A DNA stretch of 64,000 nt, from assembly GCF_056712565.1 (NCBI RefSeq), contig NZ_CM160072.1; one strand, 5' to 3'. Positions 8,043-13,731 of this stretch are shown here, piece by piece (the first letter of the stretch is position 1; the number at the start of each line of letters is the position of its first letter). The notes beneath the pieces were generated by a model. It was not told the origin of the DNA. It did not search any database and worked only from the letters and a program-made list of their open reading frames with translations. The position numbers were made by a program, and so were the translations under genes.

Positions 8043-8049
8043 CTTCTCT

Positions 8050-8083
8050 GTCTATGAGAGCCGTTAAAACGACTCTCATAGAC
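8050..8083. terminator. bidirectional hairpin between convergent qseC and ygiZ
   Basis: Perfect 11-bp inverted repeat gtctatgagag ... ctctcatagac with 12-nt loop. Confidence 0.55.
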
Positions 8084-8087
8084 TTTA

Positions 8088-8420
8088 CTAATAGCAAAAT
8101 ATAAACCGTCCCCAAAAAAGCCACCAACCACAACCCAGACAAATAACGAGCGAGAATACATATAGCCAAAACTCGAACATTTCCCGCATAAAGAGTTTTC
8201 TTAAGATAAGAATAATAAGTGGTGTCAGAAGAAAAAATGCTGCAATCATTGCTTGCAATATACGATCTTCGCCTGAAACAGAAGGTATACTGCAAATATT
8301 GTCTCCCGACTCAAGCATCCAGTCATACTTATTGAAAGCAAAAAAAGAATCTATTAACCAATAAGTAAGCATTATATATAATAGTGCTTCAAATATTGAT
8401 AGTAGTTGTTTTTTTAACAT
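8088..8420 (-). CDS. ygiZ: small inner-membrane protein (about 3 TM helices); YgiZ-like; possible immunity protein of adjacent effector
   Basis: 110-aa ORF, hydrophobic segments, AT-rich; immediately downstream of the effector-like gene (6-bp gap). Confidence 0.6.
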   Translation of the reverse strand: MLKKQLLSIFEALLYIMLTYWLIDSFFAFNKYDWMLESGDNICSIPSVSGEDRILQAMIAAFFLLTPLIILILRKLFMREMFEFWLYVFSLVICLGCGWWLFWGRFIFCY

Positions 8421-8426
8421 ATCTGA

Positions 8427-9137
8427 TTACTCATTAATCAATTTTTTGATATGTTCTCTAATCTCTAACAACCTCATACCATAAGAGATGAATTTATAAT
8501 CATCTGTATCACGCGCAGGCAAATTATTAATTAAACAAATAAAAAAACCCAAATCTCGTTCAACACCACGATTATATCTAATACCAGCCATAATATACTG
8601 CTCATTCGTCATATACAGTGTTGCCGAAGAGGGATAATCAAAAAGAACAAGATCTCTTAAATAAGTAGCAGCAATTTGAAAGGTAAAATCATCCTCCATT
8701 AGGCATGTCGCTAACTCTAACTGATTTCTGGTAGTTAATTCTGAAGGGTCTAGACCTAGAGTAATCGCTGCGGTTCGTATTTGTATACCCATTGAGCCAA
8801 ATGATGTTTTATTTTCAGGCATATCTAACAATCCGATCATTCTTTTTGTTTCATATATCTGAAACTTATAATTTTCAGGCATACCTCCTGACTCAATCCA
8901 GGCCACGCCGCCCAGTAACTCTGGACGAATTCCAGCGGCGTATGCATGTTTAATTATTTTGTCTCTATTATATTGTACATATGCATCTTTATAAGCATTT
9001 AAATAATATACTCCTGAACGGCGACGCGAATCATTTTTTCCTAACTTCCAGAGTAAAACGTCCATTTCATCCCATTTACGGAACTTCGCTTGTGGAATTG
9101 TACAATATCTATTTTTTATAGTGAGATCGCTTTTCAT
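8427..9137 (-). CDS. hypothetical protein with lytic transglycosylase/lysozyme-like (SLT/GH23-type) motifs; candidate Hcp-associated T6SS effector
   Basis: ORF 8427-9164; start placed at ATG 9135-9137 (MKSDLTIKNRY...), 2 bp after hcp stop, with AAGGA RBS inside hcp 3' end. Motifs GGVAWIESGG, FGSMGIQ and AGIRYNRG in SLT-like order; no N-terminal signal peptide. Confidence 0.55.
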   Translation of the reverse strand: MKSDLTIKNRYCTIPQAKFRKWDEMDVLLWKLGKNDSRRRSGVYYLNAYKDAYVQYNRDKIIKHAYAAGIRPELLGGVAWIESGGMPENYKFQIYETKRMIGLLDMPENKTSFGSMGIQIRTAAITLGLDPSELTTRNQLELATCLMEDDFTFQIAATYLRDLVLFDYPSSATLYMTNEQYIMAGIRYNRGVERDLGFFICLINNLPARDTDDYKFISYGMRLLEIREHIKKLINE

Positions 9138-9139
9138 AT

Positions 9140-9619
9140 TTAAAAAATCCTTTCTTCCCAACAACTATATGATTCCGTACTCGCGATATGGTGCTTCCAT
9201 GTTATATTTTTATAATTAAGAACAATGACATCTTCCGGCTGATTACCCGCATGTGTAATTGAGTGTGGATAACATGTCAGAATATTCGATAAATGTGCTC
9301 CTTGCAATTCAATTGTGTAAAACCTTTCAATACAACCGCCAGAATTAATTCTATAAAAATTAAATACAGCTGATAACTCTTCATTTTCAGAAAGAGCGGC
9401 ATTTAATAAAGGGGAGGATTTATCTATTGGCTTGTAAAATTTTATGGGGTGATGCACTACATTATACTCTCGACTTAAAGAATGGTCGAACTGTAAAACA
9501 AAAATTTCATCCACATGATTTATTTGATATTTATTACCAATAGATGCATACGAACCACAACCCTCAGAGATCAAACCTTGTATTTTCCCTTTAATTGATA
9601 AGTATATCATATTTGACAT
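9140..9619 (-). CDS. hcp: Hcp family type VI secretion system tube protein (orphan hcp)
   Basis: 159-aa ORF MSNMIYLSIKGKIQG...; typical Hcp length and conserved blocks (N-terminal YL.IKG, central FYKPIDKSSPLL, C-terminal ITWKH) recognised from memory of Hcp1-family proteins. Confidence 0.75.
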   Translation of the reverse strand: MSNMIYLSIKGKIQGLISEGCGSYASIGNKYQINHVDEIFVLQFDHSLSREYNVVHHPIKFYKPIDKSSPLLNAALSENEELSAVFNFYRINSGGCIERFYTIELQGAHLSNILTCYPHSITHAGNQPEDVIVLNYKNITWKHHIASTESYSCWEERIF

Positions 9620-9868
9620 ATATATTCTCCATAATCATTTTTTCCGAAAAACTCCTGTATCATTTGCATAATACATCTCTCCTGTGGGAGCTTATGGGAA
9701 GTTGATTTAAGTATTGTCATTTTCAGAAAATATTTATCCCGCATCGGTGAATCAGAGAAAGATCAGACTTTTGCTAAATTCGCAAAAGACTTTGCACATT
9801 TTGCTAATTTCACCGTACCGCTCTGTGACGTACTATAGTCGGCAAACGTCTCACCTTGAGGTTAAAAA

Positions 9869-10839: not shown

Positions 10840-11727
10840 TTAGCCATTCTTTCTTCCCGTTTTCAGTCCTCGATGGAAATCGTTAATTCGCTTAATGGTT
10901 TTAACCGCACGCTGCGGCACTGCGGAAGCTACCGACCAGACAATCATTTCCAGACACAACAATACCGTACCATGTAGCGGCGTTTTCCCTTTTTCATCCC
11001 CGCGCGGAACATGAATCACGATACTGGCGTCTTTGCTAAAACGTGAATCCAGCGCGTTTGTCAGCAAAATAACAGGGATCCCCAGCCGCCTCGCCTCACG
11101 AAGCGTTGTCAGCCCTTCCCGGTGCGCAGATTTTTGCGCCATCATGATCAGAACATCGCCACGTTGAAGCGCGATCAGTTGCTCGGCAAGGCCAATACCC
11201 GTACGGTTTAGTGCCGTGGCAGGCAAACCTATGCGGTTGAATAGTCGTGCGGTATAGTCCGCCAGAATACCCGAAGCGCCAATGCCAAAAATTGCGACTT
11301 GCCGTGCCTGCACCAACAACGCTACAGCTTGCGCAAGCGCGTGGCGGTTTTCAGGCTCTGACAGGACATTACAGGTATACAAATGCCCTTCAAGAACAAA
11401 GTCGATTGCGGTGTTAACATCGCTCGTCAAGTTACTCACCGTCGTAGACATCTTTTCGCTGGAACTAAGGGCTGGACCAAGCCACTGTTCCAGAGTGCGT
11501 TTCAGATCACGCAGCCCGGCAAACCCCAGGGCCTGTATAGCCCTGATAACTGTGGCATCGGAAGTGTTCAACGTGGCCGCAATTTCCATCGCCGTTTGCT
11601 CGAGTACCACTTCACGATGCTCATTAATGTAGCTGGCGACAGCTCTTAACCCAGGCGTTAACTGACTCGCGCGAGTGCGAAAACGCTCACCAAAAATATC
11701 AACCCGCGCTTTATCTTTCTGGATCAT
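10840..11727 (-). CDS. RpiR/MurR-family transcriptional regulator (N-terminal HTH, C-terminal SIS domain); last gene of Fit-like uptake operon
   Basis: 295-aa ORF; HTH region then SIS-like segment VAIFGIGASG...; start overlaps stop of upstream binding-protein gene. Confidence 0.8.
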   Translation of the reverse strand: MIQKDKARVDIFGERFRTRASQLTPGLRAVASYINEHREVVLEQTAMEIAATLNTSDATVIRAIQALGFAGLRDLKRTLEQWLGPALSSSEKMSTTVSNLTSDVNTAIDFVLEGHLYTCNVLSEPENRHALAQAVALLVQARQVAIFGIGASGILADYTARLFNRIGLPATALNRTGIGLAEQLIALQRGDVLIMMAQKSAHREGLTTLREARRLGIPVILLTNALDSRFSKDASIVIHVPRGDEKGKTPLHGTVLLCLEMIVWSVASAVPQRAVKTIKRINDFHRGLKTGRKNG

Positions 11728-12671
11728 TTAGCCTCCGGTAGAGGTCGCCCTGCAATTTGTGATTGTATCTGCGCAGCCATCAGCCCCAGAGATGCAAAGG
11801 AGTTAGAAATTGCCTCTTCACGAGAAATCAGCACATAACGCCCGGAACGACAGGCAGTCAGAAACTGACACCATCCCGGCATGACTTTTTCCATTGCTGC
11901 CAGCTCATCCTGAGGTTTACCACCGGTGTCACCGCGCCAGGTTGCAAAAACAAAATCGGCATCCAGTTCAGGTAAACGCTCCGCGCTCACATCCATTCGC
12001 CCACCTTCAGGAATGCTCTCAATCAGCGGCGGAAAACGAAAACCAGCATCGCGTAATACCCGCCCCAGCGAATGATAGCTATGCATCACATTAATTTTTC
12101 CCTGGTTTGCCTGAATCACCGATACCGTTATTTTTTGGCTGTCCAGCGTCGCCTTCAGCGCATTGATTTGTGCCTGATAGCGGCGTTCAAGTATCGCCAG
12201 CTGCGACTGCGTTCCTGTAAGTTCTGCCAGCTTGCGATAGATTTCTGGCGCACCCCCTTTGAGATGATCAATGCTCACCGTGGGCGCAATTTTTTCAAGT
12301 TGTTCAATGGGCGTATTACGGGTCGGTTCTGTGATGATCAGGTCAGGCTTTGCCGCCACAATCGCTTCAATATCAATATCAGCGGTACCAATAAAGGCGA
12401 TCGATGAATTATCAAAGTCGACACCTGTCAATAACGCGCCAGATCGAATGAAATGGCTACCGTCAGGCCGAGTTCGCCCGTGGCTGGCGACAGGAGGTAC
12501 ACCGAGCTCAATCAGAGGAATAGTGATATCAAGATCGTGTAAAGAGACAATTCTCTTTGGATGAGCAGGAACAGTGACTTTGCGCCCTAAATCATCAGTA
12601 AATACCTGAACAGGTTCTGTTGCACGGGAAAAAAATGACAACAGTATCAGCAGAGAAAAAAATAAACGCAT
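11724..12671 (-). CDS. periplasmic substrate-binding protein of iron-siderophore/B12-type ABC transporter (Fit-like)
   Basis: ORF 11724-12734; start placed at MRLFFSLLILLSFFSRA (signal peptide); cluster-9 type SBP. Confidence 0.8.
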   Translation of the reverse strand: MRLFFSLLILLSFFSRATEPVQVFTDDLGRKVTVPAHPKRIVSLHDLDITIPLIELGVPPVASHGRTRPDGSHFIRSGALLTGVDFDNSSIAFIGTADIDIEAIVAAKPDLIITEPTRNTPIEQLEKIAPTVSIDHLKGGAPEIYRKLAELTGTQSQLAILERRYQAQINALKATLDSQKITVSVIQANQGKINVMHSYHSLGRVLRDAGFRFPPLIESIPEGGRMDVSAERLPELDADFVFATWRGDTGGKPQDELAAMEKVMPGWCQFLTACRSGRYVLISREEAISNSFASLGLMAAQIQSQIAGRPLPEAK

Positions 12672-12681
12672 ATAACTCCCG

Positions 12682-13731
12682 TTAAAAACTGTTCCTGCGC
12701 TGCCAGAGCAGTAGCAAAAAAAATGGTCCACCAATCAGTGAGATAATGATTCCGGCAGGCAGTTGCAAAGGCAAAAAAGCCAAACGACCAATGCTATCCG
12801 CCAGAATAACTAACAACGCCCCCGATACCGCGCTCCCCAGCAGTAATGTCGTCTGCCCGCCACGTAGAATAAAACGTGATATATGGGGTGCTATCAATCC
12901 GACAAAACCGATGTTACCAACACACGAAACGCAGACGGCTGTCAGGATTATGGGTGCGGCGACACGTAACAACGCCAGACGAGAACTATTCACCCCTAAC
13001 CCGGTTGCAACCTGATGACCAAGCAGAGCGATATCCGCAGTCCTGGCGGTGAACAGCAATAAAAGAGCGGCTGGCAACATCCAACAGGCTGAAATACCGA
13101 CTAACATCCAGTTAGCTGCATGCAGGCTTCCCGATAACCACATCAATGCAGTTTGTACATCTCGAACATCTGCAGTGGTCATAAATACACCGATACCGGC
13201 GGCGAAAAACCAGGAAACACCAATACCAATCAGAACAAATCGCGGGCGGGAAATATCGCGCGCACAAAAAATCACGATTAAAGCCACCAACAGACCACCA
13301 GCAAGACCAGCCACTGGACGCCAGAACATTCCCAGCATTGGAAACTGGAAAATCAGCCACAGCACCGCCACGCTACATCCTTCTTTGACGCCGATTAAAC
13401 CAGGATCGGCAAGGCCGTTACGCGCAATGGATTGCATCGCGGCCCCCGCCATACCTAACATGGCCCCGCATAGCAATGCCATGATGACTCTCGGCAAGCG
13501 AATATCCTGCACAATATAACGTGCGTCTGTGCTTACGTTTTCTGGAGCAAACAACGCTCGTCCTACTTCCGATGCCGGAACAGAGAAAGAACCCTGCATC
13601 AGACCGAATATCAGTATTCCAACCGCAAGCAGGAACAGCCCACCAAGCAACAGCAGATTTTTAGGGCGCACCAGTGTCGAAAACTTACCAACACGTAGTG
13701 GGCGTAGCCCGACGTTCATTATCCGACTCAT
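12682..13731 (-). CDS. FecCD-family ABC transporter permease (Fit-like)
   Basis: 349-aa polytopic membrane ORF; 4-bp overlap with upstream permease gene. Confidence 0.82.
   Translation of the reverse strand: MSRIMNVGLRPLRVGKFSTLVRPKNLLLLGGLFLLAVGILIFGLMQGSFSVPASEVGRALFAPENVSTDARYIVQDIRLPRVIMALLCGAMLGMAGAAMQSIARNGLADPGLIGVKEGCSVAVLWLIFQFPMLGMFWRPVAGLAGGLLVALIVIFCARDISRPRFVLIGIGVSWFFAAGIGVFMTTADVRDVQTALMWLSGSLHAANWMLVGISACWMLPAALLLLFTARTADIALLGHQVATGLGVNSSRLALLRVAAPIILTAVCVSCVGNIGFVGLIAPHISRFILRGGQTTLLLGSAVSGALLVILADSIGRLAFLPLQLPAGIIISLIGGPFFLLLLWQRRNSF

Follow-up and report, generated by a model that had tools for sequence, protein, structure and literature searches.

The qseC-mdaB locus of Escherichia coli raises the question of what is gained by keeping ygiZ, a K-12 gene of unknown role that encodes a 110-aa membrane protein of the Pfam family DUF2645. 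In the stretch of DNA analyzed here (the window: 64,000 nt of contig NZ_CM160072.1, RefSeq assembly GCF_056712565.1), ygiZ lies in a ~1.7-kb, AT-rich islet between qseC and mdaB, downstream of an orphan hcp (tssD) gene and of a gene for a 236-aa protein. An earlier note, made from the sequence alone, had interpreted ygiZ as a possible orphan immunity gene, and comparative genomics supports that interpretation. From sequence comparison we propose, with a probability of about 0.7, that the three genes together make up a self-contained cargo module of a type VI secretion system (T6SS), in which ygiZ would be the immunity gene, an orphan in K-12.

The trio has several properties of an Hcp-linked effector-immunity pair. 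The 236-aa gene is co-directional with hcp and next to it, and its product has no Sec or Tat signal and is predicted to adopt a toxic-type fold. Across the 5,426 complete E. coli genomes that our counts cover, the effector gene is found in 1,261, and the small gene directly downstream is joined to it by an intact junction in 1,260; the two are likewise always together in all other genera examined. In the window, 2 nt separate hcp from the 236-aa gene and 6 nt separate the latter from ygiZ, no promoter-like site was found between the 236-aa gene and ygiZ, and the GC content is 29-40% over positions 8050-9850, compared with 50-57% in the flanks. The earlier note's description of a membrane-protein gene directly 3′ of an effector-like gene in one operon, with an AT-rich composition common to both, is thus borne out. 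The ygiZ open reading frame begins with ATG, its product matches the DUF2645 model (PF10840; E 7.8e-11, residues 13-109), and RefSeq gives the name ygiZ to this gene in thousands of E. coli genomes.

The 236-aa protein as a putative toxin

Single-sequence and profile searches with the 236-aa protein against Pfam, NCBIfam, PADLOC and the PDB returned nothing significant; the Pfam SLT (glycoside hydrolase family 23, GH23) model did not match even at E 10, and among PDB sequences there was no match to any lytic transglycosylase or Tge protein. The structure predicted by AlphaFold2 (AF2) from 24 homologues is all-alpha and of moderate confidence (predicted local distance difference test score, pLDDT, 74; predicted template modeling score, pTM, 0.73), and its fold matches the lytic transglycosylases and the T6SS muramidase Tse3, with MltE as the top structural match. 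As in lysozyme-like and lytic transglycosylase folds, the model has a candidate catalytic glutamate where the helix leading up to the groove ends. The toxin family has an invariant W80-I81-E82 followed by S/T/A/V-G-G, and the stretch around E82 aligns with AIE64SGGNP of E. coli EmtA/MltE, in which E64 is catalytic (hhalign, local match, P 7.5e-4); the PDB entry 4hjy is the E64Q mutant of that enzyme. Hydropathy analysis revealed no hydrophobic N-terminus, signal peptide or lipobox. Because the predicted fold and the aligned glutamate coincide with the lack of an export signal, we read the model as that of a divergent glycan-strand-cleaving enzyme without a route of its own to the periplasm, which agrees with the earlier guess that the upstream protein is a peptidoglycan hydrolase. 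A constant hcp partner and no export signal together are the hallmark of Hcp-carried T6SS cargo effectors.

The same domain is found well outside the Enterobacterales. It forms the C-terminal ~175 residues of 445-460-aa proteins encoded on two Streptomyces plasmids (hhalign 98.5%, E 2e-15), and each of these genes overlaps the next one downstream, which encodes a protein of 103-116 aa; two to three hydrophobic segments were detected in that protein, and there are probably three. The 103-aa Streptomyces membrane protein could not be placed in DUF2645 by sequence (hhalign 0.4%), the likeness being one of topology alone. The domain is also the C-terminus of a ~1,490-aa Nostoc protein, again plasmid encoded, after which no small gene follows. 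Judged from these sequences, the domain behaves like a polymorphic-toxin module. A conserved gene of ~150 aa stands upstream of the Streptomyces toxin-domain genes. A link of the Streptomyces proteins to type VII secretion was considered and was not established, Pfam being blank for their N-terminal regions and for the upstream genes; the N-terminal region of the Nostoc protein has no Pfam match either. The 236-aa protein also matches an uncharacterized PHROG family, phrog_11932 (E 4e-28). Despite that match, a phage origin of the toxin was set aside, since a tblastn search of 50,697 phage records returned no homologue; phrog_11932 itself might stem from prophage-adjacent sequence.

In the mechanism that we envisage, the 236-aa protein would be made in the cytoplasm, loaded into the ring of its cognate Hcp and fired by the T6SS of the strain into the periplasm of neighboring cells, where it would cut the glycan strands of peptidoglycan or a membrane-proximal glycan substrate. 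YgiZ would act as the cognate inner-membrane immunity protein, with its N-terminus inside and three helices, and its periplasmic loop and C-terminal tip, each of which holds an invariant cysteine, would bind the toxin and block it as it arrives at the periplasmic side of the inner membrane. Islet-carrying B2 lineages (sequence types ST131, ST73 and ST95) have T6SS loci, and tssM is interrupted in ST131 clade C (PMC10711316).

Inheritance of the trio and of orphan ygiZ

Searches with either protein led to the same arrangement in other genera. The 236-aa protein belongs to a small family that consists of uncharacterized proteins only (34 clusters), and in Pectobacterium, Chania, Serratia (on a plasmid) and Erwinia the homologue has hcp upstream and a DUF2645 gene downstream in unrelated neighborhoods. 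Starting from DUF2645, we recovered the full trio in Citrobacter werkmanii, two Pseudocitrobacter genomes, another Serratia, another Pectobacterium and a Buttiauxella-like contig. A scan of genome contigs with DUF2645 peptide patterns, which were too strict, returned 7 loci only. In all, the order hcp-toxin-DUF2645 is seen in E. coli, Citrobacter, Pseudocitrobacter, Serratia, Pectobacterium, Chania, Erwinia, Rahnella and the Buttiauxella-like contig, and the distance from the toxin stop codon to the DUF2645 start ranges from -14 to +7 nt across 11 loci, which implies translational coupling. Cassettes outside mdaB-qseC occupy unrelated chromosomal contexts and plasmids, away from T6SS core genes, and Hcp diverges in step with the effector across genera. 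On plasmids of Rahnella and of Serratia sp. JSRIV002 the toxin is ~40% identical, the next gene is still annotated as DUF2645 and hcp is adjacent. In the Serratia sp. JSRIV002 variant, hcp is downstream on the opposite strand, and an unannotated 151-aa protein with a signal-peptide-like N-terminus is encoded upstream of the toxin. Cronobacter plasmids carry a homologue of 36% identity followed by a gene for a 98-aa protein with three transmembrane (TM) segments, which resembles DUF2645 in topology alone and could not be placed there by sequence (hhalign 9.7%). Hence at every Enterobacterales locus found through the effector the next gene is DUF2645 or, in Cronobacter, an unclassified small three-TM gene, and hcp is adjacent in every Enterobacterales cassette examined except that of Cronobacter.

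In Citrobacter and Pseudocitrobacter the trio occupies mdaB-qseC, the same site as in E. coli, and it has diverged in proportion to the genes on either side: between Citrobacter and E. coli the protein identities are 92% for MdaB, 78% for QseC, 75% for Hcp, 74% for the toxin and 64% for YgiZ. The shared site and the divergence that tracks the flanks suggest that the full cassette at qseC-mdaB is probably the ancestral state, from which the K-12 and O157 states would have arisen by successive losses.

Three haplotypes of the locus are present in E. coli. The full trio (~23% of genomes) is found in ST131, the type strain ATCC 11775 and uropathogenic (UPEC) and avian pathogenic (APEC) isolates; ygiZ alone (~61%, ~3,340 genomes) is the state of K-12; and neither gene is present in the remaining ~15% (~830 genomes), including O157:H7, the qseC-mdaB spacer of which is empty. 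With ygiZ in 4,598 of the genomes and the 236-aa gene nearly always joined to it, co-occurrence is one-sided in the way that an effector-immunity pair predicts. The statement in the earlier note that K-12 carries a 110-aa ygiZ at this locus without hcp was correct. A K-12-lineage genome reads qseC-ygiZ-mdaB, with no hcp and no 236-aa gene, and alignment identifies its YgiZ as an orthologue of the window copy at the same locus (92% protein identity). The K-12-type gene differs from the window copy in its first ~8 codons and is preceded by 141 nt of unrelated sequence in a three-way alignment; no recognizable remnants of hcp or of the 236-aa gene were found in those 141 nt. The orphan arrangement is collinear in E. 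whittamii, the 141 nt included (91% identity over 730 nt), and is therefore an old haplotype rather than a recent laboratory or lineage accident.

A 354-kb E. coli record filed as a plasmid also carries the pair (NZ_MG591698.1:59875-60921; toxin gene 97.5% and ygiZ 93.6% protein identity). With lengths of 4.8-4.9 Mb, two more ygiZ-bearing "plasmid" records are evidently chromosomes.

The topology of YgiZ, from hydropathy and the positive-inside rule, has the N-terminus inside, TM1 at ~6-29, TM2 at ~54-73 and TM3 at ~82-104, in agreement with the helices of an AF2 model (1-27, 50-77 and 81-107). A short, basic turn between TM2 and TM3 (RKLFMRE) would face the cytoplasm. The parts predicted to be periplasmic are an acidic loop of 24 residues (30-53), which matches the short loop that the earlier note had described, and a five-residue tail. 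Conservation among 16 sequences of identity as low as 34% is concentrated in these parts and next to them: Y32, W34, M35 and C43 of the loop are invariant and N30, D40, I45, P46, S49 and R53 nearly so, and W100, F102, G104 and C109 are invariant at the C-terminal tip. C43 and C109 are both predicted to be periplasmic and could form a disulfide.

The third gene of the cassette evolves faster than its partners. The ratio of nonsynonymous to synonymous substitution rates (dN/dS) between E. coli and Citrobacter is 0.23 for ygiZ, 0.058 for the toxin gene and 0.064 for hcp, and protein identity across cassettes is 35-64% for YgiZ and 55-74% for the toxin. Faster evolution with gene order kept is typical of immunity genes. 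As expected of an orphan immunity gene, ygiZ persists as an intact orthologue at the same locus in genomes without the effector, with a dN/dS between K-12 and E. whittamii of 0.40, which is relaxed yet below 1 and is based on only ~26 substitutions. We propose that in Escherichia hcp and the toxin gene were lost in one old deletion, after which ygiZ had a new 5′ end and its own H-NS-silenced, BglJ-RcsB-activated promoter, that the K-12-type orphan has been retained because it still protects against B2-type strains that carry the weapon, and that a third haplotype, such as that of O157:H7, lost everything.

Solitary DUF2645 genes and alternative roles for ygiZ

Several observations weigh against an immunity function for ygiZ. 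K-12 has a distant paralogue, the 104-aa YjeO, which belongs to the same Pfam family and shares the loop and the C-terminal cysteines with YgiZ (hhalign 86%), and yjeO stands alone at yjeM-mscM in E. coli and Salmonella with no toxin nearby. Other solitary DUF2645 copies are found in Xenorhabdus and on two metagenomic contigs, and genes of this kind that have been solitary for so long suggest that the family may have a role of its own. K-12 ygiZ has a promoter of its own, activated by BglJ-RcsB and silenced by H-NS (PMC3950696), and its only reported phenotype is tolerance of sabinene upon overexpression (PMC7181518). The nearly invariant loop residue D40 (codon 40, window positions 8301-8303) is replaced by glycine in many orphan alleles, including that of K-12, and is kept in other orphan alleles and in all linked alleles examined; the D40G change may stem from relaxed constraint or from a shift in specificity. 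About 15% of E. coli do without any ygiZ. A toxin-(GGGGS)6-YgiZ fusion, modeled by AF2 from 13 paired sequences as a stand-in for the complex, reached a pLDDT of 54 and a pTM of 0.32, worse than the toxin alone, and gave no read-out of an interface. The immunity proteins of characterized T6SS glycoside hydrolases (Tsi3/Tgi) are soluble periplasmic proteins or lipoproteins, and a three-helix membrane protein that exposes ~24 plus ~5 residues is an odd antidote for a wall enzyme, which our reading leaves unexplained.

We asked whether yjeO is linked to a toxin in either E. coli or Salmonella. It is solitary in both, so it provides no independent support for the toxin link. The yjeM-mscM spacer is itself polymorphic in E. 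coli, with yjeN and yjeO together in ~2,147 genomes, yjeO alone in others, or neither, and Salmonella has yjeO without yjeN at that site. YjeN (104 aa), the gene for which overlaps yjeO by 4 nt in E. coli K-12 HMS174, matches no family, and a comparison with the toxin revealed no similarity. A further solitary DUF2645 gene, in Serratia oryzae, is in a region resembling an integrative and conjugative element (ICE), beside a ParE/RelE-like toxin-antitoxin pair and near a TraD-like coupling protein of 698 aa, which suggests that lone DUF2645 genes can spread on mobile elements.

The solitary genes lead to an alternative in which DUF2645 proteins, YgiZ and YjeO among them, have an independent function in the envelope or in membrane stress, their linkage to cassettes is secondary and K-12 keeps ygiZ for that role. 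Consistent with such a function, yjeO has been stable at one locus in E. coli and Salmonella and solitary copies are long stable in Xenorhabdus and elsewhere, K-12 ygiZ has its dedicated promoter, the overexpressed gene improves growth and cell shape under sabinene stress, and the orphan is under purifying selection. We nevertheless regard this role as unlikely, given an extremely small and patchy family (30 clusters at 50% identity, many of them fragments, in a profile search of 1.84 billion representative proteins) and the absence of ygiZ from ~15% of E. coli and of yjeO from many more, which is unlike a housekeeping gene. Moreover, all toxin homologues found in Enterobacterales are followed by such a small gene, the solitary copy of Serratia oryzae is on an ICE-like element, and ygiZ evolves faster than its neighbors.

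Two other explanations retain the pairing and give it another purpose. Wall-cutting enzymes are known to be enlisted for the assembly of a T6SS, MltE in enteroaggregative E. coli being one example. TagX is such an enzyme in Acinetobacter (PMC5061870). The 236-aa protein, with MltE as its top structural match, might by analogy be a peptidoglycan remodeler that helps the T6SS/Hcp tube cross the wall of the producer, with YgiZ as its anchor, exporter or regulator. We consider this highly improbable, since the protein has neither a signal peptide nor a lipobox with which to reach the periplasm of the producer, the cassettes are dispersed, some of them on small plasmids, and lie apart from T6SS core genes, ygiZ stands alone in ~61% of E. 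coli, strains without the enzyme among them, and the domain recurs as the C-terminal module of large multi-domain Streptomyces and Nostoc proteins. The anatomy of the pair, a ~110-aa three-TM protein and a signal-less enzyme of lytic transglycosylase fold, also recalls that of lambda S and R, the holin and endolysin, and the enzyme has its PHROG match. In a lysis or release pair in the style of type 10 secretion, a membrane lesion made by YgiZ would let the cytoplasmic lytic transglycosylase reach the wall. To this we give very little credence: the membrane gene is downstream and not upstream of the enzyme gene, and YgiZ, predicted to be N-in and C-out, stops right after TM3 and lacks a charged cytoplasmic tail. 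No PHROG family matches YgiZ, the enzyme lacks homologues in the phage records searched, its constant partner is hcp, and such a pair would not explain why most E. coli keep a lone holin. Cells tolerate T7-driven overexpression of ygiZ and even benefit from it (PMC7181518).

Taking ygiZ as the immunity gene of an Hcp-carried module, one can ask what target would call for an antidote embedded in the membrane. Action of the toxin at the membrane-proximal face of the wall, if true, would explain it. A tentative and rather doubtful extension is that DUF2645 is a polytopic inner-membrane immunity family dedicated to one previously undescribed lytic-transglycosylase-fold toxin domain, which would act membrane-proximally on nascent or lipid-linked glycan and not on the mature sacculus. 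The logic of a toxin plus a small membrane protein would then be common to Hcp-carried T6SS effectors of Enterobacterales and multi-domain toxins of Streptomyces, and K-12 would hold two relics, ygiZ and yjeO, that shape which E. coli lineages can be killed by the B2 clones ST131, ST73 and ST95 of extraintestinal pathogenic E. coli (ExPEC).

The islet and its place among known systems

The coordinates of the islet and its parts are collected in Table 1. The hairpin beyond ygiZ is missing from the empty O157 site and is therefore counted as part of the islet. The hcp-mdaB spacer (9620-9868) showed no strong sigma-70 consensus.

Table 1. Features of the qseC-mdaB islet in the window
Feature	Coordinates	Strand	Evidence
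ygiZ, 110-aa DUF2645 protein with three predicted TM helices; proposed immunity gene	8088..8420	-	Open reading frame, Pfam, RefSeq, hydropathy and positive-inside topology, invariant C43/C109
236-aa protein of predicted lytic-transglycosylase (lysozyme-like) fold, without signal peptide; proposed Hcp-carried T6SS cargo effector	8427..9137	-	
Orphan hcp (tssD), 159 aa, first gene of the cassette	9140..9619	-	TIGR03344, E 2e-58, full length; annotated as Hcp family protein
Perfect 15-bp hairpin where ygiZ and qseC converge, between their stop codons; likely operon end	8050..8083	-	-24.9 kcal/mol, z -7.6
hcp-mdaB spacer; presumed promoter region of the cassette	9620..9868	-	~177 mdaB-proximal nt common to the K-12 ygiZ-mdaB spacer
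Extent of the AT-rich islet relative to the empty qseC-mdaB site of O157:H7	8043..9760	.	Three-way alignment, GC profile, O157 annotation

A second presence/absence polymorphism is found ~1 kb from the islet. Between ygiN and parE, at window positions 10840-12734 and beyond, are genes for a MurR/RpiR regulator and an iron-siderophore ABC transporter (substrate-binding protein and FecCD permeases); this insert is present in UPEC and O157:H7 and missing from K-12, in which parE directly follows ygiN.

If the proposal is correct, it would give a function to ygiZ and to Pfam DUF2645, and would add to the T6SS effectors a new family, present in roughly one in four complete E. coli genomes, the major ExPEC lineages among them. 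Islet-positive B2 strains should then kill ygiZ-null strains (e.g., O157:H7) and spare those that express ygiZ. A membrane-embedded antidote to a cell-wall glycosidase would be unusual and could point to a membrane-proximal target. A module of this kind would as such be no surprise to a T6SS specialist. A full-text literature search, with most subscription journals outside its scope, returned nothing linking ygiZ, DUF2645 or WP_000834021 (the 236-aa protein) to T6SS. A structural-bioinformatics survey of T6SS pairs was confined to effectors that are fused to PAAR, VgrG or Hcp (PMC11148199).

In function, the closest counterparts of the proposed module are the Tge/Tgi (Tse3/Tsi3) pairs and, in Pantoea and Erwinia, hcp islands whose modules include orphan immunity genes. 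The former are T6SS glycoside-hydrolase effectors with cognate immunity proteins, namely Tse3/Tsi3 (Tge1/Tgi1) in Pseudomonas aeruginosa and Tge2/Tgi2 in P. protegens. The E. coli pair has no detectable sequence relationship to them (no Pfam or PDB sequence matches), and differs in the predicted polytopic inner-membrane nature of YgiZ, where Tsi3/Tgi are soluble periplasmic proteins or lipoproteins, and in its organization as an orphan hcp trio outside any T6SS cluster. Compared with the family 1 (GH23) lytic transglycosylases MltE/EmtA and Slt70, the 236-aa protein lacks a Pfam SLT match and an export signal and has an extra conserved N-terminal region of ~60 residues. The immunity proteins of pore-forming colicins, which have 3-4 TM helices and ~110-180 aa, neutralize membrane-inserting pore domains; YgiZ is by analogy small and polytopic in the inner membrane and would act at its periplasmic face, whereas its partner has an enzyme fold, and no sequence similarity to the colicin immunity proteins was found. 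In the hcp islands of Pantoea and Erwinia, effector-immunity pairs are directly downstream of hcp and orphan immunity genes, kept after loss or replacement of the effector, have been interpreted as protection against effector-carrying kin (PMC9796082, which also cites orphan immunity arrays of Vibrio cholerae). The E. coli module resembles these islands in the position of the pair directly downstream of hcp and in the retention of the putative immunity gene without its effector. It differs from them in that the trio stands by itself in an intergenic site between housekeeping genes, as an islet outside any T6SS cluster, and in that the orphan is just one gene, now the allele of most E. coli.

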